This document shows positions 729 through 10,573 of a stretch of 64,000 bases of DNA, in pieces. The translations under genes and the position numbers were made by a program. Source of the stretch: Escherichia phage vB_EcoM_G2540-3. The stretch lies in sequence record MK327944.1; one strand, 5' to 3'. How positions within the stretch are numbered: position 1 is the first letter of the stretch; each line of letters starts with the position of its first letter. The notes beneath the pieces are model-generated. The model saw nothing but the letters and a program-made list of their open reading frames with translations, searched no databases and was not told where the DNA came from.

Positions 729-2411
729 TTAAACCATTACAGTAAATCGACCAACTTTCTTCATTTGAAGATGCTGACCATATTCTTGTGGGTCATGGTC
801 TTTATGCGAAATTATAAAAACATTAGTGTTTTTCATTGAATTTATAATATTAGCTACACCTTTAATACCTTCGGCATCAAATGACCCATCAAACACTTCA
901 TCAAGAATTAATGTACTAATACTAACACCAGATACAATAGAAGCAATATCACGCCAAGTAAATAAAAGAGCAATATCGATTCGTGCCTTTTCGCCTTCAC
1001 TAAATGAAGCATAACTAAAATCTTCACGACCACGGGATTTAATTGTCTCATTAAATTCTTCATCTAATGTAAACACATAATCCGCTTCCATTATTTTAAG
1101 ATAATGGTTAATCTGCTTATTAAATAATGGAATGTACTTTTTAATAATAGCACCTTTAATACCAGAATCTTTGAGCATATCAGTCAAAATTCCTCTGTGG
1201 TATTTTTCCATTACTAAATTAGTTTTTGTCTTAACAATTTTATCAAGTTCTTCTTGAAGCAGTGCTATTTCATCAGCATGGTCAATAAACTCAGATGATG
1301 CTTTTTCTATAGCCGCTTTAACTTTTTTAGCTTTATCTACCGTCGTGATTAAGGATTGCTTTTTATTGCGAATATCATTTGCCAGCGTCTGCTGGGTTTT
1401 AATATTATCTCGGTATTCATCAACAAGAACTTTTAAATTATCACGATGTGTTGAAAGCTGTTCAAAAGAATGCGTGCATTCAGAAATTTTATCTTTAATT
1501 TTAGAAACAACTTTATCACCGGAACTTAATTGTGACAAACAGGTTGGACATAATCCACCTTCGTGATACATATTAATGACTTTATTATACGAGTCAATTT
1601 TTGATTTAATTAAAACTGCTTCTTGACCGATTTTATTAAATGCATCAGTTGGGTCTTCATCCAAAACAATATTAACTAATCTTTCGTTAGCTTCTTCTAT
1701 TTCCGATTTTAGCGTTCTAGCTTCTTTTGCCAAATCATCATACATATTTTGCAGACGAGTAAGGTTGTCACCCGTTAATTTTTTCTGGCGTTCAACGTTA
1801 TCATTATATATTTTAATTTGTTGGATAATACTATCTTTTTTAACATCAAGCACTTGGTTCTGCGAATTTAATTCGCGTATTAGTGCTTTATTAAGCTTAT
1901 CCATTTCAGCTAATGTTCCTACCTCAAGCAGGTCTTCCACAAGTTTTCTTCTTGCAGGAGTGGATAGGCCCATAAAAGGGGTATATCCAGCCGTGCCGAG
2001 TACGACGATCTGTTTGAAACTGGTGTATGACATTCCGATAAGCTGTTCAAATTCTGCTTGGAAATCTTTACTGCTGGCAGATTCATTAAGACGTGTACCG
2101 TTAACGGTGATTTCGAAAACATTTGGTTTTTGTCCTCTTTTGATATAGTACTTTTTCTCATCATATTCCATCCACAGTTCAACTAAAAGCTCTTTCTTAT
2201 TTGTGCTGTTTATTAATTGACCTTTCTTTACATCACGAAATGGCTTGCCAAAAAGCCCAAATGTGATGGCTTCTAACATAGTAGACTTACCACCGCCATT
2301 TCGTCCAGTAATAAGAGTTTTTTGAGCCTTATCTAGTTGAATGTCAACTCCATTTTGACCAACTGACATTATATTTTTATATTTTACTCTATTAAGTTTA
2401 AATGATTTCAT
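729..2411 (-). CDS. 46: Recombination endonuclease subunit gp46 (Rad50/SbcC-like ATPase), 560 aa
   Basis: Walker A GRNGGGKST near N-terminus, long coiled-coil middle with CPTC zinc hook, C-terminal ABC signature/Walker B region (LILDEVFDGSFD); 560 aa equals T4 gp46. Confidence 0.9.
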   Translation of the reverse strand: MKSFKLNRVKYKNIMSVGQNGVDIQLDKAQKTLITGRNGGGKSTMLEAITFGLFGKPFRDVKKGQLINSTNKKELLVELWMEYDEKKYYIKRGQKPNVFEITVNGTRLNESASSKDFQAEFEQLIGMSYTSFKQIVVLGTAGYTPFMGLSTPARRKLVEDLLEVGTLAEMDKLNKALIRELNSQNQVLDVKKDSIIQQIKIYNDNVERQKKLTGDNLTRLQNMYDDLAKEARTLKSEIEEANERLVNIVLDEDPTDAFNKIGQEAVLIKSKIDSYNKVINMYHEGGLCPTCLSQLSSGDKVVSKIKDKISECTHSFEQLSTHRDNLKVLVDEYRDNIKTQQTLANDIRNKKQSLITTVDKAKKVKAAIEKASSEFIDHADEIALLQEELDKIVKTKTNLVMEKYHRGILTDMLKDSGIKGAIIKKYIPLFNKQINHYLKIMEADYVFTLDEEFNETIKSRGREDFSYASFSEGEKARIDIALLFTWRDIASIVSGVSISTLILDEVFDGSFDAEGIKGVANIINSMKNTNVFIISHKDHDPQEYGQHLQMKKVGRFTVMV

Positions 2412-2426
2412 TTTGTATCCAATTGT

Positions 2427-3281
2427 TCACAATGAAGAAAATTCTTTAACTAAAGCCTGTAATGAAGCCTCTATTGGATATCCATTCTTAACTAACATTT
2501 TCCTAAACATTACATGTTTAGGACGATTATATGATATCCACAATTCATACAATTTATCTTTATTATCCCAATGATAGCCTTTTCGTCGAGATGCTATATG
2601 AGCTTTTCTAATCTCCGGATTTTTCCAACTAGCAGCTACTGAATTTGATATAGCTATTTTATATTCAGGTTTTGATAAAGCAGCACGAACAGCCTTTTGG
2701 TGTTTAATTTTATTTTCTTCGTTATTAAACCATTCCCTTGAAGCAATTGAAATTTTTTGTTTTGTTTTAAAATTATTTAATCTTTCTTTGTTATCTTTCC
2801 TATTTTTTGCTACTGAAAAATATTTTAATGCCCTTTCTCTAGCAGCATTTCTATTTTGCGGATTTGAATAATACTGTTGAAGCCTTTTTGATATTGTGTC
2901 ACTTACATCTTGTTTTATAAAACTATATTCAGCAGCTATTAAATCAACTTCGGCTAAAGATAAATTTTTATATGTTTTTCCTGACATCATTCTATTTAAA
3001 GCATTTAGCATTTTTCCATTTTTACCTTTTGCTAATAAGAAATGTGCTTTAAAATGATTAAAATGACTTAAATTAACTAAATTCCATGTAGATTTTAAAT
3101 ATTCAGGAAATATTGATTTAGGAAGCACGTGGTGTGCTTCCGTTTTACCTGGAGTTTTAACAGTTGAATTCATAGAAATAAAATTAATGTAAGACTTGGC
3201 GTCTTCTTCACTCAACGCTAATTTTTCAACTAATTCCTTTATTAAAAATTCATCATTAATGTCAAGTTTAAAATTCTTCAC
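2427..3281 (-). CDS. HNH homing endonuclease-like protein (Mob family-like), 284 aa, GTG start
   Basis: HHVLPKS motif followed by NLVNLSHFNHFKAH (HNH-type His/Asn pattern); start codon is GTG overlapping stop of upstream ORF (GTGA); inserted between genes 47-side small ORFs and 46. Confidence 0.65.
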   Translation of the reverse strand: MKNFKLDINDEFLIKELVEKLALSEEDAKSYINFISMNSTVKTPGKTEAHHVLPKSIFPEYLKSTWNLVNLSHFNHFKAHFLLAKGKNGKMLNALNRMMSGKTYKNLSLAEVDLIAAEYSFIKQDVSDTISKRLQQYYSNPQNRNAARERALKYFSVAKNRKDNKERLNNFKTKQKISIASREWFNNEENKIKHQKAVRAALSKPEYKIAISNSVAASWKNPEIRKAHIASRRKGYHWDNKDKLYELWISYNRPKHVMFRKMLVKNGYPIEASLQALVKEFSSL

Positions 3282-3493
3282 AAAAGATTCCTTTTAATGT
3301 ATCTTTTAGACCATTCTATCATATCATCATAATCTAAAAAGTATTCGTCAAATTCAGCCATGCAAACAACGCCTTGTGCTGTTTTTGATGTAATGTAAAT
3401 TATTCCAACATATCTAGAATCTTCTTCGATATAATCAATATTTGCTATGAATTCATCATTAATGTCAAATGTCGAAAACTTCACAGTATGCAT
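3278..3493 (-). CDS. Hypothetical small protein (start assumed at internal Met MHTVKF with SD AAGGA)
   Basis: ORF 3278-3541 on track; probable start at 3493 preceded by AAGGA; shares FDINDEF segment with N-terminus of adjacent HNH protein. Confidence 0.35.
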   Translation of the reverse strand: MHTVKFSTFDINDEFIANIDYIEEDSRYVGIIYITSKTAQGVVCMAEFDEYFLDYDDMIEWSKRYIKRNLL

Positions 3494-3728
3494 CCTTAAT
3501 ACAAGATACAGCCATATCTCGTAATGATTTAGGTGTGTCATTATCTAAAATGTTGAAGTTAAAAGATACAGCCCAGTCAGTGCAGACTGTAACCTTTTTA
3601 ATACAATTATCTTCAACCTCTAACGGTTCAAACCAATATTCAATAATTTCTTTATGCCCAATATCATCTTTTACTTCGCATTCAAAATGCTGACTCATCA
3701 TAACATTTTTAAATTCATCAAAAGTCAT
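3465..3728 (-). CDS. Hypothetical protein, 87 aa
   Basis: ATGA overlap with gene 47 stop (coupled translation); acidic small protein. Confidence 0.4.
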   Translation of the reverse strand: MTFDEFKNVMMSQHFECEVKDDIGHKEIIEYWFEPLEVEDNCIKKVTVCTDWAVSFNFNILDNDTPKSLRDMAVSCIKDAYCEVFDI

Positions 3729-4744
3729 TGTGTTGCCTCTACATATAACTGATTTGCATATTGAATAAGTGCTTCACGGTCAGAATCAGTGATGTCTGGA
3801 ATTGCATTAATGTATTCTTCCATCAACGTCTGAAGAGATTGAACTTCAACTTCTTCACTGTCATCTGACTCGACAGAGTTATCAATCTTTGACACAACTC
3901 GTAATGAATGCACAACTTTTTCTAGTTCAGATTCGAACTTCGTCAGATTTTTGTCTACTTCAGTTACTATAACACGTACTGATAGATTTGTAAAATCTTT
4001 ATAGTCAATTTTTCCTTTAAACGGATAATGAATTCTACGATGCCAGGTAGTATTGTTTGGAATAAATTCCATTCGTTCTGTTTCTGTATCAAACATCCAG
4101 AACCCGCGAGGGTCATTCTCGTCACCTGCAGTTAGTGTCCATGGTGTCCCAATATATCTGACGTTAGCAGCCTCAGAGATAGTATGGAAGTGACCAGACC
4201 ACACTTCTTTATAAGTCTTAAGGAAATCAGGTTCAAGACCGTGAGATTTCATTCCTTTATAAAAATAAAATCCATTCAGTTCCCAGTGACCAACACAAAA
4301 AGAAGCAGAAGAAGTTTTTATGTGCTCGAGAATTTCACCAGTATTTTCTTCACACATCCAAGGAATTAAATCAATTAAACATCCGTCAAAATCTACTGTA
4401 GTAGGCTTATCATACACTTTAACATTAGGATATTTAGCCAAAAGCTCAGTAGAAGCATTTGGATGCATTACATTTTTGTAGTGGAGATCGTGATTTCCTA
4501 CAATAGTATGTAATGTGATTCCAGCGTCATCAAGCATTTGAACTATTTCACGGGCAAACTCCATAGTTTTATGTGTAATTGCTTTTCGCACATCAAAAAT
4601 ATCACCATATTGAATCCATACAGTAATTCCATTTTTCTTAGAATATTCTATCGCTTGCTTAATTCCATCAATTTGAATACCGCGAATCCACTCATCATCA
4701 GCTTTAACGCCTAAATGCCAATCACCCAAGTTTAGTATTTTCAT
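3725..4744 (-). CDS. 47: Recombination endonuclease subunit gp47 (Mre11/SbcD-like phosphoesterase), 339 aa
   Basis: Calcineurin-like phosphoesterase motifs GDWHLG, GDIFD, GNHD, GHWE; 339 aa equals T4 gp47; adjacent to gp46. Confidence 0.9.
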   Translation of the reverse strand: MKILNLGDWHLGVKADDEWIRGIQIDGIKQAIEYSKKNGITVWIQYGDIFDVRKAITHKTMEFAREIVQMLDDAGITLHTIVGNHDLHYKNVMHPNASTELLAKYPNVKVYDKPTTVDFDGCLIDLIPWMCEENTGEILEHIKTSSASFCVGHWELNGFYFYKGMKSHGLEPDFLKTYKEVWSGHFHTISEAANVRYIGTPWTLTAGDENDPRGFWMFDTETERMEFIPNNTTWHRRIHYPFKGKIDYKDFTNLSVRVIVTEVDKNLTKFESELEKVVHSLRVVSKIDNSVESDDSEEVEVQSLQTLMEEYINAIPDITDSDREALIQYANQLYVEATQ

Positions 4745-5345
4745 GGTGTCTTTTCCATCCTAATTTAGCTGCTTTTGAAACCAGTTCTTTAATTTTTCCT
4801 TTTGTCCATTCAGGACCAGGAGGTTCATGACATAACATTTGCTTAACTCCGTTATTATACCATTTTTTACCTTTATTATGTGATGAAGCTTTAAATTTAT
4901 TTGACCTTCCTTTTACATAACCTTCTGGAATATAAGGCAAAAAGGCAGATTTTCCTGTTAATGGATCATGTGAATGTATATTTCCTTTACAATTATGAGA
5001 ACCATATAATGGATGATTTTGTCCTTTATTATCTCTTCCAAATGAACCTTTTGGAGCAGCATATGACATATTAAAGAATAATGGATTTTTAACTGCATCA
5101 TGCAATCGTTGATAATATAACTCGCATTTAATAGCTTCTTCACGCGTATCAAATTCAGCTAAAATGCATGAATCAAATAAGTGAGGATTATCTGAAAGCT
5201 CTTTATTATAAATTTTCTTATACTTTTTAGATAAAACTGAACCATGATATCCAGCTAAATGCCTATCTAAAGACGTAGATCCAATATAAAAAGGAGGAAG
5301 TTTATCTCCGCTATATATTGTTAAATAAGTTATATATTTTTTCAT
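4722..5345 (-). CDS. GIY-YIG family homing endonuclease-like protein (Seg-like), 207 aa
   Basis: N-terminal YITYLTIY...FYIGST...R...GY.GS pattern typical of GIY-YIG module, basic C-terminal half; lies between a-gt and 47. Confidence 0.6.
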   Translation of the reverse strand: MKKYITYLTIYSGDKLPPFYIGSTSLDRHLAGYHGSVLSKKYKKIYNKELSDNPHLFDSCILAEFDTREEAIKCELYYQRLHDAVKNPLFFNMSYAAPKGSFGRDNKGQNHPLYGSHNCKGNIHSHDPLTGKSAFLPYIPEGYVKGRSNKFKASSHNKGKKWYNNGVKQMLCHEPPGPEWTKGKIKELVSKAAKLGWKRHHENTKLG

Positions 5346-5502
5346 ATATCAAGAACCGTCATTGAAATGCAAAATAAAATTATTGAAATAAACCCATCTG
5401 GTGTGCTAAAGAACCCAATCCAACATGCTCTAGTGAATAGATAAAATGCAAGAAAAAGTATCACATATCCAAGAAATATCATTATATCAAACTCCGTATA
5501 AA

Positions 5503-5520
5503 GCTAAAGGGCCGAAGCCC
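5503..5520. terminator. GC hairpin with UUCG/CGAA tetraloop downstream of a-gt
   Basis: AAAGGGC-CGAA-GCCCTTT palindrome with flanking A/T runs. Confidence 0.35.
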
Positions 5521-5521
5521 T

Positions 5522-6724
5522 TTATTTTGTAATAATGTCAAACTGTTCTTTAAAGCAGAAGCTTGAATCTTGATGCTGATACAAAAATTCATAAGCTTTT
5601 TCGCGTTCGCGGTCATAAAGAGTTCGGTCAGATGACAGTTCTTTAATACGTTCAAATGTTGATTCCATGTCATTTTCATCAAACCAAATGATACCGCTAT
5701 CATGCGAGGTCAAAGGAGTATTATCAACACGGAATTTTAAATTTTCGCCAGTAGATTTCCAAAATACCGGAATTGTTCCACATGCACCAAGCTCGAGATG
5801 AGTATATTCTAAAGAGCGCTGTAGATATTTTTTATCCAACTTACTCAACTGATAACCAAAACCGGATTTACTCATACGTTCAAGCATTTCGCTATTTACA
5901 TAACGGTCAAGAATTTGCGTTGGCAAATTAGGAGCAATTTTAATTTGGTCTACTTGATGAAGACGATAATACTCGTATGGAATTCCTTTTTCTTTAATAG
6001 GAATGAACGCTGGAGAACGTTCCAGACCTTCCATAATAGTACTTAGTCCTGCAGGTTTAAGATGTTTTTCATGAAAATCAAACATCTGATAAAAACCTTT
6101 CCATGTAGTCGTACGACCAATCCAACGGTTGATATTCATGTTAATTTCAGAAACATCTTTCCAGTAGGTTGATCGAACCTTCGCAATATCCATAGGAGGC
6201 TGAAAGTTATATACTGTCGGCGCTTCTTCAATATCATCAAACAGAGAAACTGTTTCCGGATACCATTCTTTCATCAGAACTTTATTAAAATCGCCATTAT
6301 CAGAATGGCTAAAAATAACATCAGCTCGACGAACAGTTTCTTCTAATCCCAAATTTCGACGCAAAGAAAGAGAAGAATGGTCATGCTGATAAACTACAAC
6401 ACGAACAGAAGGTTTAATGTTATCAATAATTTTTTTATAGTTATTAATAGTGTCTTCTTCAACCCAAGTAGCAGGAACTGAATTGATAATTAGAATATCA
6501 CAATCATTTACCAGCTTAAGTGTTTTATCGTATTCTTTTGCCAATAAAACCGGAATTGAAAATGATTTATAATCATGCGCGCAATTACGAGTAAATGATT
6601 TATCTTTAGCATAAACCAAAGTCACTTCATGACCATTTTTAATAAACCAATCACGTTGCTCGAGTGAGAATTTAGTTACACCACAACCTTCAAGACCTCG
6701 AGCCATAAAAATACATACTTTCAT
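5522..6724 (-). CDS. a-gt: DNA alpha-glucosyltransferase, 400 aa
   Basis: 400 aa; N-terminus MKVCIFMARGLEGCGVTKFSLEQRDWFIKNGHEVTLVYAKDKSF and C-terminus FCFKEQFDIITK match recalled T4 AGT nearly residue for residue. Confidence 0.9.
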   Translation of the reverse strand: MKVCIFMARGLEGCGVTKFSLEQRDWFIKNGHEVTLVYAKDKSFTRNCAHDYKSFSIPVLLAKEYDKTLKLVNDCDILIINSVPATWVEEDTINNYKKIIDNIKPSVRVVVYQHDHSSLSLRRNLGLEETVRRADVIFSHSDNGDFNKVLMKEWYPETVSLFDDIEEAPTVYNFQPPMDIAKVRSTYWKDVSEINMNINRWIGRTTTWKGFYQMFDFHEKHLKPAGLSTIMEGLERSPAFIPIKEKGIPYEYYRLHQVDQIKIAPNLPTQILDRYVNSEMLERMSKSGFGYQLSKLDKKYLQRSLEYTHLELGACGTIPVFWKSTGENLKFRVDNTPLTSHDSGIIWFDENDMESTFERIKELSSDRTLYDREREKAYEFLYQHQDSSFCFKEQFDIITK

Positions 6725-8780: not shown

Positions 8781-9107
8781 TTATACCTTAGTAATTTTCA
8801 GGTCTGCAAATTTTTTCTTGCGTTGATTTTTCATACGACGAATAGTTTTATCGGAAATTTCATGCTTTTGATAAGCTTTAGATTCTACACCAAAAGCTTT
8901 AACATCAAATTCTGACAAGATATATTGAACCAACAATTCACGGACAGTATTGCGTCCAATCTTCTGATCATTCTGTTTCATCGTCTGATGAAGCTCTTTT
9001 TCCCATTTATCCAAAATTTGAGGAGTTACAATATCGCCTTTTTCTAGCAAAGAAACTACTTTATCATATGCGTAAGAATTAATGACGTTTTTAATTTGAA
9101 TAGTCAT
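8781..9107 (-). CDS. Hypothetical protein, 108 aa
   Basis: ORF, basic C-terminus. Confidence 0.4.
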   Translation of the reverse strand: MTIQIKNVINSYAYDKVVSLLEKGDIVTPQILDKWEKELHQTMKQNDQKIGRNTVRELLVQYILSEFDVKAFGVESKAYQKHEISDKTIRRMKNQRKKKFADLKITKV

Positions 9108-9142
9108 ACATTATCCTCAATTACGTTAAAATTTTATTATCC

Positions 9143-9161
9143 AAAAAGGGCCGAAGCCCTT
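9143..9161 (-). terminator. Terminator-like UUCG hairpin
   Basis: Minus-strand AAGGGC-UUCG-GCCCUU followed by UUUUGG. Confidence 0.45.
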
Positions 9162-9360
9162 AGCTAAACTTTTTGGCACCCTTCCAGCCTTCATACATCA
9201 TTGCGGCTGATATTAATATTGCTCCTGAGCAACTTGAATATTTGTGATTCCAAAACCAGTTCAGAAAAACTTCATCATCAATACCTTGGGCTATCATATT
9301 TTCAAAGAACTGACGACGAGATTCGGCAATTCGTTGCGATAATTTAGATTCAGGATTCAT
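9160..9360 (-). CDS. Hypothetical protein, 66 aa
   Basis: ORF followed by terminator hairpin. Confidence 0.35.
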   Translation of the reverse strand: MNPESKLSQRIAESRRQFFENMIAQGIDDEVFLNWFWNHKYSSCSGAILISAAMMYEGWKGAKKFS

Positions 9361-9499
9361 TTAAATTTTCCAGTTACCATTTTCATCAATAAATTTAATC
9401 CAGTCATTTACTGACCACTTAGTTGTATCACCTTTTGGAGTAACATTTAAAGTATATAGCCCTTGCTTAAAAAGCATTCGTTTGATATTCATATTTTCC

Positions 9500-9793
9500 T
9501 CAGCTGTAACGATAACACTCGTTTGATTTGCGTTTAGCAACTCGTTGAGAAGTATTATAATCAAAATCATCGTCAATGTAAACTGATTTTTTCAACTTTC
9601 TTACTTCACCGCGTAATTGACGATTTAACTCATCTTTAACTTCTGAATCAATGCCTTTCATTCTACGCCATTTATCTGAGCGAAAAATGTTTTCAACCAT
9701 ATCTTTATGACTTACACCGTCTGGAGCTTTACGCTTTCCAAAATAGTCATAATCACGAACTTTCAAGTCTTTACGACGATACGTTTTACCCAT
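9500..9793 (-). CDS. Hypothetical basic protein (start assumed at MGKTYRRK)
   Basis: ORF 9500-9838 on track; internal ATG at 9793 overlaps stop of an unlisted upstream 58-aa ORF (ATGGGTAA), suggesting this is the real start. Confidence 0.35.
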   Translation of the reverse strand: MGKTYRRKDLKVRDYDYFGKRKAPDGVSHKDMVENIFRSDKWRRMKGIDSEVKDELNRQLRGEVRKLKKSVYIDDDFDYNTSQRVAKRKSNECYRYS

Positions 9794-9992
9794 GGAGTTT
9801 AATTTCCTTAGCAACTGAACTAAATACAGCACGATCACAAATCATACGTTTGTTCCATTTAATCACAGTATAATGAACATCTAGATCATCGACTGCTGTA
9901 ACAATAACGATATGTCCGTTAACGCGATAATACTGGTCAATTTTAATCTCTTTATCAACCATATCAATTCCTCAAAGGCAATTCATATGTTA

Positions 9993-10022
9993 ATAATACC
10001 ACAGTTTGAACTTGTTGTAAAC
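9993..10022 (-). promoter_or_regulatory. T4-type early promoter (GTTTACA -35, TATTAT -10)
   Basis: Minus strand GTTTACA-17 nt-TATTAT. Confidence 0.5.
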
Positions 10023-10093
10023 AACTTTGTGAAAAATATTTTAGGGAATGATAAGAAAGGAACGATAGCTTAGAATGGTAATATACAGAATGT

Positions 10094-10117
10094 TAGAAAG
10101 AAAGGCCCAGAGGGCCC
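10094..10117 (-). terminator. Terminator-like hairpin downstream of nrdH
   Basis: GGGCC-CUCU-GGCCC followed by U-rich UUUCUUUCUA on minus strand. Confidence 0.4.
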
Positions 10118-10120
10118 GTC

Positions 10121-10573
10121 TTAATCTTCTATGATATCTCTATCATATCCAAGTGAAATGAGAGTTTCTTTGAAGTGTTTAATGTTCTTTTGTCTAGAAT
10201 CATTAATGAAAATGACTGGATAACGAATGTTAAGAGATGTGAATCCAGCGCGTTTAGCAAGAGATACAATCAGTGGACGATCATACTCAATCTTACCGTT
10301 ATTTGTAAGAACTTTATAGAAAGTAAAAGGAGCATTGAGCTCCTTTAGAAGTTTTGTAACTGATTGACATCCAGGACAACGACCTACTTCATCTGGAATT
10401 CCATAGACTTCAATCTTATTCTTTAAGTTCGAGTTTTGTTCCACGAGAAATAATTCCTTGGTAAGCCCAATAAGGAGGATTAACAGAATCATCACCAGAA
10501 TTTTCTTCAGGGAAATAAACCTGGATAACGAAGCCGGATTCATCAAAGGTAAAATAAACCGTAGGCAGTTCAC
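10121..10573 (-). CDS. nrdH: Glutaredoxin/NrdH-like redoxin (CPGC motif); true start probably well inside this ORF
   Basis: Thioredoxin-fold signature KIEVYG...CPGCQ; first ~50 codons overlap upstream ORF and look untranslated; synteny next to nrdG. Confidence 0.5.
   Translation of the reverse strand: MNCLRFILPLMNPASLSRFISLKKILVMILLILLIGLTKELFLVEQNSNLKNKIEVYGIPDEVGRCPGCQSVTKLLKELNAPFTFYKVLTNNGKIEYDRPLIVSLAKRAGFTSLNIRYPVIFINDSRQKNIKHFKETLISLGYDRDIIED

Follow-up and report, generated by a model that had tools for sequence, protein, structure and literature searches.

The 64,000-nucleotide stretch of Escherichia phage vB_EcoM_G2540-3 analysed here (MK327944.1; hereafter the window) carries two genes of homing endonuclease type next to the essential recombination genes 46 and 47, and a 19-bp direct repeat at the start of one of them. 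The region of 3.2 kb in which they lie matches Escherichia phage vB_EcoM-G28 (Tequatrovirus) at 99.8% identity; with T2, T6, RB51 and numerous further T-even phages the identity is 97-98%. The minus strand carries all genes of this region. They are transcribed in the order a-gt, 47.1, a GIY-YIG-type open reading frame (ORF), 47, 46.2, 46.1, an HNH-type ORF and 46, whereas the order in T4 is a-gt, 47.1, 47, 46.2, 46.1, 46 and both extra ORFs are absent. The two homing endonuclease genes (HEGs) and the features that belong to them are the following, with positions counted in the window.

2427-3281, minus strand: MobD-like HNH HEG, 284 amino acids, GTG start, HNH motif at residues 47-80 (homology, motif)
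2403-3272, minus strand: HNH cassette, 870 bp, absent from T4 (blastn against T4, multi-genome alignment)
3264-3281, minus strand: captured native start of gene 46, GTGAAGAATTTTAAACTT (VKNFKL), now HEG codons 1-6; repeat copy A (identical to the T4 46.1/46 junction)
2394-2411, minus strand: replacement 5' end of gene 46, ATGAAATCATTTAAACTT; repeat copy B (blastn, alignment)
2412-2426, minus strand: 15-nt spacer from the HEG stop (TGA) to the new ATG of gene 46 (sequence)
3247-3265, plus strand: 19-mer copy 1, HEG codons 6-12 (TT of codon 6 plus DINDEF)
3450-3468, plus strand: 19-mer copy 2, the source copy, codons 6-12 of 46.1 counted from its GTG
4722-5345, minus strand: Seg-like GIY-YIG HEG, 207 amino acids (Pfam GIY-YIG; phrog_10820, 1e-94)
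4745-5345, minus strand: GIY-YIG cassette, 601 bp, absent from T4 (blastn against T4, junctions)

By blastn against T4, window positions 2300-2402 correspond to T4 locus 8874-8976 and positions 3264-4744 to T4 locus 8968-10448. The HNH cassette between them is bounded by the 9-bp repeat TTTAAACTT, so that its edges can slide by up to 9 bp, and its insertion point lies inside the coding sequence of gene 46, after codon 6. On the coding strand, T4 reads AAAAGGAATCTTTT GTG AAG AAT TTT AAA CTT, where 46.1 ends and gene 46 starts with GTG, and continues with AAT AGA GTA. The window is identical to T4 through CTT and then enters the HEG with GAC ATT AAT GAT GAA TT T TTA ATA AAG. At the far end of the cassette it reads TCA TTG TGA ACAATTGGATACAAA ATG AAA TCA TTT AAA CTT, after which AAT AGA GTA is resumed. 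The ribosome-binding site of T4 gene 46 (AAAGGAA), located just upstream of the captured start, is used by the HEG, whose GTG overlaps the stop codon of 46.1 (GTGA). Gene 46 itself now begins at a cassette-borne ATG with the recoded codons MKSFKL and is, from codon 7 on, 96% identical to T4 gene 46. Copies A and B form an imperfect direct repeat of 18 bp with 14/18 matching positions, the last 9 bp being the perfect repeat that bounds the cassette.

The spacer holds a GGA as a possible weak Shine-Dalgarno sequence and is similar to the junction between the HEG and gene 46 in Melville (GGATATTAAATG), while ATGAAATCATTTAAA is the Mosigvirus-type start of gene 46 (O157tp3). The combination of a Mosigvirus-type start with a Melville-like spacer suggests that the 3' end of the HNH cassette was derived from a diverged phage. 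A variant of the HEG from the Logan assemblies (P0017; window 2412-2440) encodes 290 amino acids; its C-terminal frame is altered in a way that a 1-nt deletion would explain. The TGA of this ORF overlaps the ATG of gene 46 (ATGA), a classic coupled arrangement. The 3' end of the cassette may originally have had this form.

The start of the HNH gene is a chimera. The 19-mer AATTCATCATTAATGTCAA occurs exactly twice in the window, both times on the plus strand, and a gapless extension yields 45 nt at 78% identity (3238-3282 against 3441-3485). Seventeen of the 19 bases of copy 1 are non-T4 and are the very first bases of the insert. We found that HEG codons 7-12, encoding DINDEF, reproduce codons 7-12 of T4-type 46.1, located 203 bp upstream, base for base, so that the HEG N-terminus is composed of three parts: gene 46 codons 1-6, 46.1 codons 7-12 and the HEG body. 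The phages T4, RB27, AR1 and teqhad, which are without the HNH gene, have a single copy of the 19-mer, in 46.1. Homologues of 46.1 from five genera (Tequatrovirus, Gaprivervirus, Mosigvirus, Karamvirus and Dhakavirus) keep the pattern F-(D/N)-(I/L)-x-D-x-aromatic-x-x-N at this place, and the N-termini of the HEG relatives are unrelated (MIDAETILK, MTKTDYETQIYK, MDINFKS, MNYDRF). Since the segment is conserved in 46.1 and absent from the relatives of the HEG, 46.1 is the source and the HEG the recipient. Moreover, every listed full-length member of an 85-member cluster begins with MKNFKLDINDEF (start MKNFKL), from which a single origin of the chimera follows. The frameshifted HEG of T2 has one synonymous change (GAT for GAC) in its copy of the 19-mer.

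The first-pass annotation had noticed that the HNH N-terminus repeats an internal segment of the upstream small ORF, now recognized as 46.1, and the exact 19-mer at both positions bears this out. Its judgement that such a repeat is unlikely by chance also holds: shuffled sequences of 64 kb contained 0.17 matches on average, even when up to 3 mismatches were tolerated, and the recurrence of a 17-mer within +-500 bp is expected at about 1.4e-6 at the local base composition. The reading as a recombination or insertion scar was right as far as it went, the 19-mer being, as judged from the aligned genomes, a recombination footprint under either of the two routes discussed below. It was incomplete with respect to the three-part nature of the HEG start, and the repeat had been placed at a gene junction, although the cassette lies inside the coding sequence of gene 46. 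A longer paralogous family conserved in all relatives had been named as a possible objection; the relatives without the HEG carry one copy, and the similarity past the shared block is not significant (p = 0.09).

The GIY-YIG cassette has a comparable layout at gene 47. It is flanked by a 7-bp direct repeat, ATGAAAA (4738-4744 and 5339-5345). The ATG of the GIY-YIG gene is the former start of gene 47 and overlaps the stop of 47.1, while the new start of gene 47 overlaps the last 23 nt of the GIY-YIG gene. In two GIY-YIG-positive genomes (the window and teqhad) codons 3-6 of gene 47 read ATA CTA AAC TTG, compared with ATT TTA AAT TTA in 5/5 GIY-YIG-negative genomes, which amounts to four synonymous changes in 12 nt. 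The GIY-YIG ORF and gene 47 share a near-repeat of 13 nt (4711-4723 and 5255-5267), probably a chance match.

Regarding the proteins, the HNH ORF matches phrog_655 'homing endonuclease' (4.8e-45) and phrog_12434 'HNH endonuclease' (2.5e-15). MobD of T4/RB3 is 30% identical to it over 235 residues (47-281; E = 3e-11), and the HEGs upstream of gene 46 in Melville and F2 are 44-45% identical. In an alignment of 16 family members, E48, H50, H51, P54, W66, N67, L71 and H76 are invariant and H80 is nearly so, and the same motif columns are invariant in the alignment with T4/RB3 MobD. In an AlphaFold (AF2) model with a pLDDT of 80.5, a strand at 47-51 carries the HH, a second strand at 68-72 follows N67, and a helix at 73-84 carries H76 and H80. 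At the level of secondary structure, the model fits the beta-beta-alpha arrangement; its first 10 residues are of low confidence (pLDDT 65). We conclude that the HNH ORF is a gene of homing endonuclease type with a predicted nuclease function. A terminator-like hairpin of 9 bp (GGAAGCACG/TGTGCTTCC) at 3121-3141 on the non-coding strand lies inside the region coding for the HNH motif; it overlaps the EAHHVLP codons and is probably incidental.

The first 100 residues of the GIY-YIG ORF, taken alone, score 23.7 bits with Pfam GIY-YIG (PF01541) against a cut-off of 22.6 (E = 5.8e-5), and the full-length protein scores 21.4 bits, just under the cut-off. ITY (5-7), YIG (20-22), E75 and N92 are invariant in three homologues, and R28 occupies the expected position of the catalytic Arg, where QL01 and SmallBear have Lys. 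By motif spacing, these positions correspond tentatively to those of I-TevI. RefSeq (NC_054916.1, KMC08_gp061) labels this protein 'HNH endonuclease', as it does the homologues in QL01, SmallBear, fPS-90 and others. Judged by Pfam and motif, this label names the wrong family.

The first-pass annotation had called the two ORFs at 2427-3281 and 4722-5345, and the ORF list agrees in coordinates, strand (minus for both), length and, for the HNH ORF, the GTG start. Its assignment of both to endonuclease families is supported by the MobD homology, the PHROG match and the invariant residues of the HNH protein, by the Pfam score of the GIY-YIG protein and by the absence of both genes from T4. The profile searches that it proposed gave the GIY-YIG domain above the Pfam cut-off, together with the PHROG matches, but the Pfam HNH models remained below threshold. 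It had further described the two genes as flanking gene 47 and bracketing genes 46 and 47. Both are indeed nearby, but each lies directly upstream of its own gene, the GIY-YIG gene of 47 and the HNH gene of 46.

Counting database records, duplicate GenBank and RefSeq entries included, we found the HNH gene in 70 and the GIY-YIG gene in 67 (at least 95% identity), and T4-type 46.1 in about 517 (at least 80% identity). The two HEGs occur together in 8 records compared with about 9 expected if independent, that is, they assort independently. T4, RB27 and AR1 are without both HEGs, T6 and T2 carry the HNH gene only, and teqhad carries the GIY-YIG gene only. The boundaries of the insertions are sharp, to within 9 bp for the HNH cassette and 7 bp for the GIY-YIG cassette. 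In T2, RB51, RB68 and Ac3 the HNH gene is frameshifted, a decay typical of HEGs; in T6 it is intact. The flanks differ along with the insertions: over the first ~350 bp of gene 47 there are 4 differences among GIY-YIG-positive genomes as against 15-45 for negative ones, and over the first ~200 bp of gene 46 there are 3-4 differences among HNH-positive genomes as against 17-20 for the RB27 type. Such flanking haplotypes fit a co-conversion together with the HEGs.

Beside the HNH insertion site, at codons 6-20 of gene 46 (2348-2394), the phages without the HNH gene show two sharply different haplotypes. The T4 type reads CTT AAT AGA GTA AAA TAT AAA and the type of RB27, AR1 and teqhad CTA AAC CGA GTT AGG TAT CAA; 14 of 47 nt differ between the two, compared with less than 5% in the rest of gene 46. 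The RB27/AR1/teqhad codons could represent a target allele that resists cleavage, or a short stretch acquired from another lineage.

Homologues of both HEGs are found at the same addresses in more distant phages. In Melville (Gelderlandvirus) and F2, the HNH homologues (44-45%) are located directly upstream of gene 46. GIY-YIG homologues (60-70%) lie directly upstream of gene 47 and overlap its start in QL01 (Dhakavirus) and Klebsiella phage SmallBear. Melville has a MobD-like HEG directly after gene 47 and is missing 46.1 and 46.2, while only 46.1 is missing in F2; from these gene contents, 46.1 and 46.2 appear to be dispensable and repeatedly overwritten by HEGs. The presence/absence pattern, the haplotypes and the shared addresses are the expected signature of site-specific homing, with cleavage and biased inheritance being putative. 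During mixed infection, each enzyme would cleave relatives without the HEG, at the start of gene 46 or 47 or close to it, and repair of the break would copy the cassette together with flanking markers. In a genome bearing the HEG, both the insertion and the recoded first codons would confer protection.

A possible route to the chimeric start is indicated by F2. Relative to the Mosigvirus O157tp3, the stretch from codon 8 of 46.1 to the start codon of gene 46 is replaced in F2 by the cassette of a 44%-related HEG (F2 locus 1466-2291). Since the start of 46.1 is retained, the F2 HEG begins with the ribosome-binding site of 46.1 and MTKTDYE. With this arrangement as a precedent, the HEG would have been fused in a T4-type ancestor to codons 1-12 of 46.1, the rest of 46.1 being replaced. 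The predicted intermediate would have the order 46.2, VKFSTFDINDEF-LIKELVEKL... HEG, 46, with ACATTTGACATTAATGATGAATTTTTAAT as its junction sequence. An illegitimate join at a 2-nt microhomology (TT) would then have linked gene 46 of a 46.1-bearing genome (...AAA CTT) to the fusion (...ACA TTT/GAC), leaving a complete 46.1 upstream, followed by 46(1-6)::46.1(7-12)::HEG and by gene 46. We consider it likely that the whole is best explained in this way, namely by two independent HEG cassettes of known kind in the first codons of genes 46 and 47, an origin of the 19-mer in a fusion to 46.1, and homing.

Several observations weigh against this explanation. T4, which is without the HNH gene, shares the HNH-linked haplotype of the gene 46 5' end, and for this reason the direction of events may be either a gain or a precise loss between the 9-bp repeats. 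No genome with the 46.1(1-12)::HEG intermediate was found. Among the 67 phage records covering at least 80% of a synthetic intermediate query, the best 12 matched it in two pieces spanning 298 bp, which is the observed arrangement. Scans of IMG/VR, metagenomes and viral contigs gave no intermediate; the observed junction was absent there too, which makes these scans uninformative. A search of 5.8 billion proteins returned no relative between 36% and 99% identity. The HEG relative KM16 (P0020/21) begins with MDIN, so that the HEG family might have a short DIN of its own. The cutting activity of both enzymes and their target sites are predicted. Pfam detected no HNH domain above threshold in the HNH ORF (AHH, E = 0.18), fold searches with the full-length model were not significant, and NCBIfam gave no family for either ORF. 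With the curated HNH profiles and the fold searches below significance, the HNH assignment is based on motif, predicted secondary structure and homology to MobD.

The 19-mer may also have arisen as filler DNA, in a single illegitimate repair event during which 17 nt were copied from 46.1, 203 bp away, by template switching, without a fusion intermediate. The copied stretch is short, exact and located precisely at the junction, the intermediate was found neither among the listed cluster members nor among the best 12 phage records, and the join between 46 and 46.1 has a mere 2 nt of microhomology, all of which would suit such an event. However, F2 shows that an in-frame fusion of this HEG family to the 5' end of 46.1 occurs, and a 17-nt patch must by chance have kept the frame and replaced the native HEG start; we therefore regard this route as rather unlikely. 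The notion that the repeat is due to chance in AT-rich DNA, for which the 68% A+T of the region might speak, is practically negligible given the shuffle counts and the 17-mer expectation reported above and the exact coincidence of the repeat with the cassette boundary.

Two further explanations assume a lasting relationship between the copies. According to one, 46.1 is what remains of a degenerated MobD-like HEG, or both proteins share an N-terminal module, and the 19-mer is the best-preserved part of an old paralogy. A weak further resemblance (EEDSR-Y..I and EEDAKSY..I) and the fact that the 3' ends of T4 46.1 and the F2 HEG cover the same gene 46 initiation region are in line with this idea. 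Yet beyond DINDEF the local protein alignment scores 26 compared with 20.2 +- 3.8 for shuffles, and an extended paralogy of 46.1 and the HEG was rejected on this non-significant similarity. Moreover, a perfect stretch of 19 nt amid unrelated sequence speaks for a recent copy and not for an old divergence, DUF5487, the family of 46.1, is a distinct family kept across genera without an HNH motif, and DINDEF is absent from the HEG relatives, which together render the paralogy very improbable. According to the other, gene conversion keeps the 19-mer as a shared regulatory site in the mRNA or as an N-terminal peptide motif. Both copies do lie 15-16 nt downstream of a GTG AAG start with an AAGGA-type Shine-Dalgarno sequence, and the HEG copy shows one change, in T2 (GAC to GAT), which is synonymous, but neither initiation region has a conspicuous RNA structure (z = -0.48 and weaker), the HEG relatives have unrelated N-termini, and the model has low confidence in its first 10 residues. 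We give hardly any credence to a functional repeat of this kind.

Overall, the HNH and GIY-YIG genes are ordinary in kind, belonging to the Mob-like HNH and Seg-like GIY-YIG families of free-standing HEGs. Both are already annotated in dozens of public phage genomes and represent no new kind of system; a literature search found no paper on these two HEGs. The new detail is their anatomy: as read from the compared genomes, each HEG captures the start of the downstream essential gene and returns a recoded start. In the case of the HNH gene, the first 12 codons are a patchwork of 46 and 46.1, which explains the 19-bp repeat. The base-by-base footprint shows how a free-standing HEG may settle beside an essential gene without harm, and should be useful for studying the spread of HEGs and the mosaicism of T-even phages. 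It also suggests that cleavage sites be sought in the first codons of genes 46 and 47, and exposes annotation errors, namely the GIY-YIG protein labelled as HNH and starts of gene 46 called too far downstream. More tentatively, and we consider this doubtful, start-codon capture may be a shared strategy, in which the HEG takes the ribosome-binding site and coupling of an essential gene and supplies a recoded start doubling as an immunity determinant. If this were true, the targets would be the first codons of 46 and 47, which encode the nuclease processing the very breaks on which homing depends, and the hyper-divergent codons 6-20 of gene 46 in RB27-type phages would be a naturally resistant allele.

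The surrounding genes of the host operon were assigned as follows.

5522-6724, minus strand: a-gt (ORF list, annotation)
5342-5482, minus strand: gene 47.1, small predicted membrane protein (phrog_6693; T2 and T4 annotation)
3725-4744, minus strand: gene 47, Mre11/SbcD-like subunit (Pfam; genome alignment)
3465-3728, minus strand: gene 46.2, T4_Y03C family (Pfam, 2.6e-43)
3278-3484, minus strand: gene 46.1, DUF5487 (Pfam DUF5487, 4.9e-48)
729-2411, minus strand: gene 46, Rad50/SbcC-like recombination nuclease subunit, 560 amino acids (Pfam SMC_N, AAA_23, Rad50 zinc hook)

We found no T4 late promoter (TATAAATA) on the coding strand of 2200-5700. MotA-box-like TGCTT sites in this interval are without a convincing -10 element, and a sigma-70 scan was at background level (17 sites, with 18.4 expected). 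At four initiation regions, including those of 46.1 and the HEG, no RNA structure differed from shuffles. From their sequences, both cassettes seem to be promoter-less and to be read within the host operon. Such reading from the host operon has been described for mobD, mobE and several seg genes (Edgell et al. review, PMC2988022). Between a-gt and 47.1, at 5505-5524 (plus-strand coordinates), a GC-rich hairpin is followed by a T run; the G28 record gives this as a putative coding-strand terminator. The operon comprising the GIY-YIG gene, 47, 46.2, 46.1, the HNH gene and 46 may start downstream of this hairpin.

Two start codons in this operon deserve a comment. The annotated ATG of 46.1 (3475-3484) abuts an AAGGA Shine-Dalgarno sequence, whereas a GTG three codons downstream is 8 nt away from it. 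The Pfam DUF5487 profile starts at the Val of this GTG, which may be the true start of 46.1. In several GenBank records, among them those of RB27, AR1 and teqhad, gene 46 is annotated from an ATG further downstream (1641 bp) instead of the GTG that overlaps the stop of 46.1 (1683 bp in T4); gp46 is consequently 14 residues too short in those records.

The Mob group of T4 comprises the free-standing HNH homing endonucleases MobA to MobE, of which MobE is the characterised one. The HNH protein of the window resembles MobD in its TEAHH..P...N.V.L...H..AH motif and in a helical C-terminal region with NUMOD3-like repeats. Like mobD, its gene forms a free-standing cassette that seems to have no promoter and to be transcribed with the host operon (PMC2988022). 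In contrast to MobD, whose site is nrdC.11/mobD.1, the HNH cassette is inserted inside the 5' end of gene 46, the N-terminus of the protein is a chimera from two host genes, and the Pfam HNH models remain below threshold. MobD is listed as 'ND' in the review by Edgell et al. (PMC2988022). A closer likeness exists to the HEGs of F2 and Melville, which are also found immediately upstream of gene 46 with the HEG 3' end covering the gene 46 initiation region, and the F2 HEG shares the in-frame fusion to host codons of 46.1. Unlike in F2, where the HEG replaces 46.1, and in Melville, where it replaces 46.1 and 46.2, 46.1 is intact in the window, and the HEG carries codons 1-6 of gene 46 besides the codons of 46.1.

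The GIY-YIG protein shares with the T4 Seg proteins and I-TevI the N-terminal GIY-YIG domain and apparently the YIG, Glu and Asn motif positions, and like the seg genes it is encoded by a free-standing cassette beside a conserved essential gene (47). As a difference, the position aligned with the catalytic Arg is Arg here and Lys in two homologues. The table of 15 T4 HEGs in the review by Edgell et al. places none of them between 47.1 and 47 (PMC2988022). Flanking markers are co-inherited with the GIY-YIG gene, as in the marker exclusion by SegB, SegF and SegG (PMC2988022, PMC2330249). Barth et al. 2023 described T5orf172 and IPA-HNH HEGs in ICP1-like phages, without mention of genes 46 and 47 or MobD (PMC10448857). 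The arrangement in the window resembles their HEG islands in that nuclease genes lie beside essential genes, at the boundaries of allele exchange, and the local haplotype mosaic of genes 46 and 47 fits the HEG-island picture (PMC10448857).

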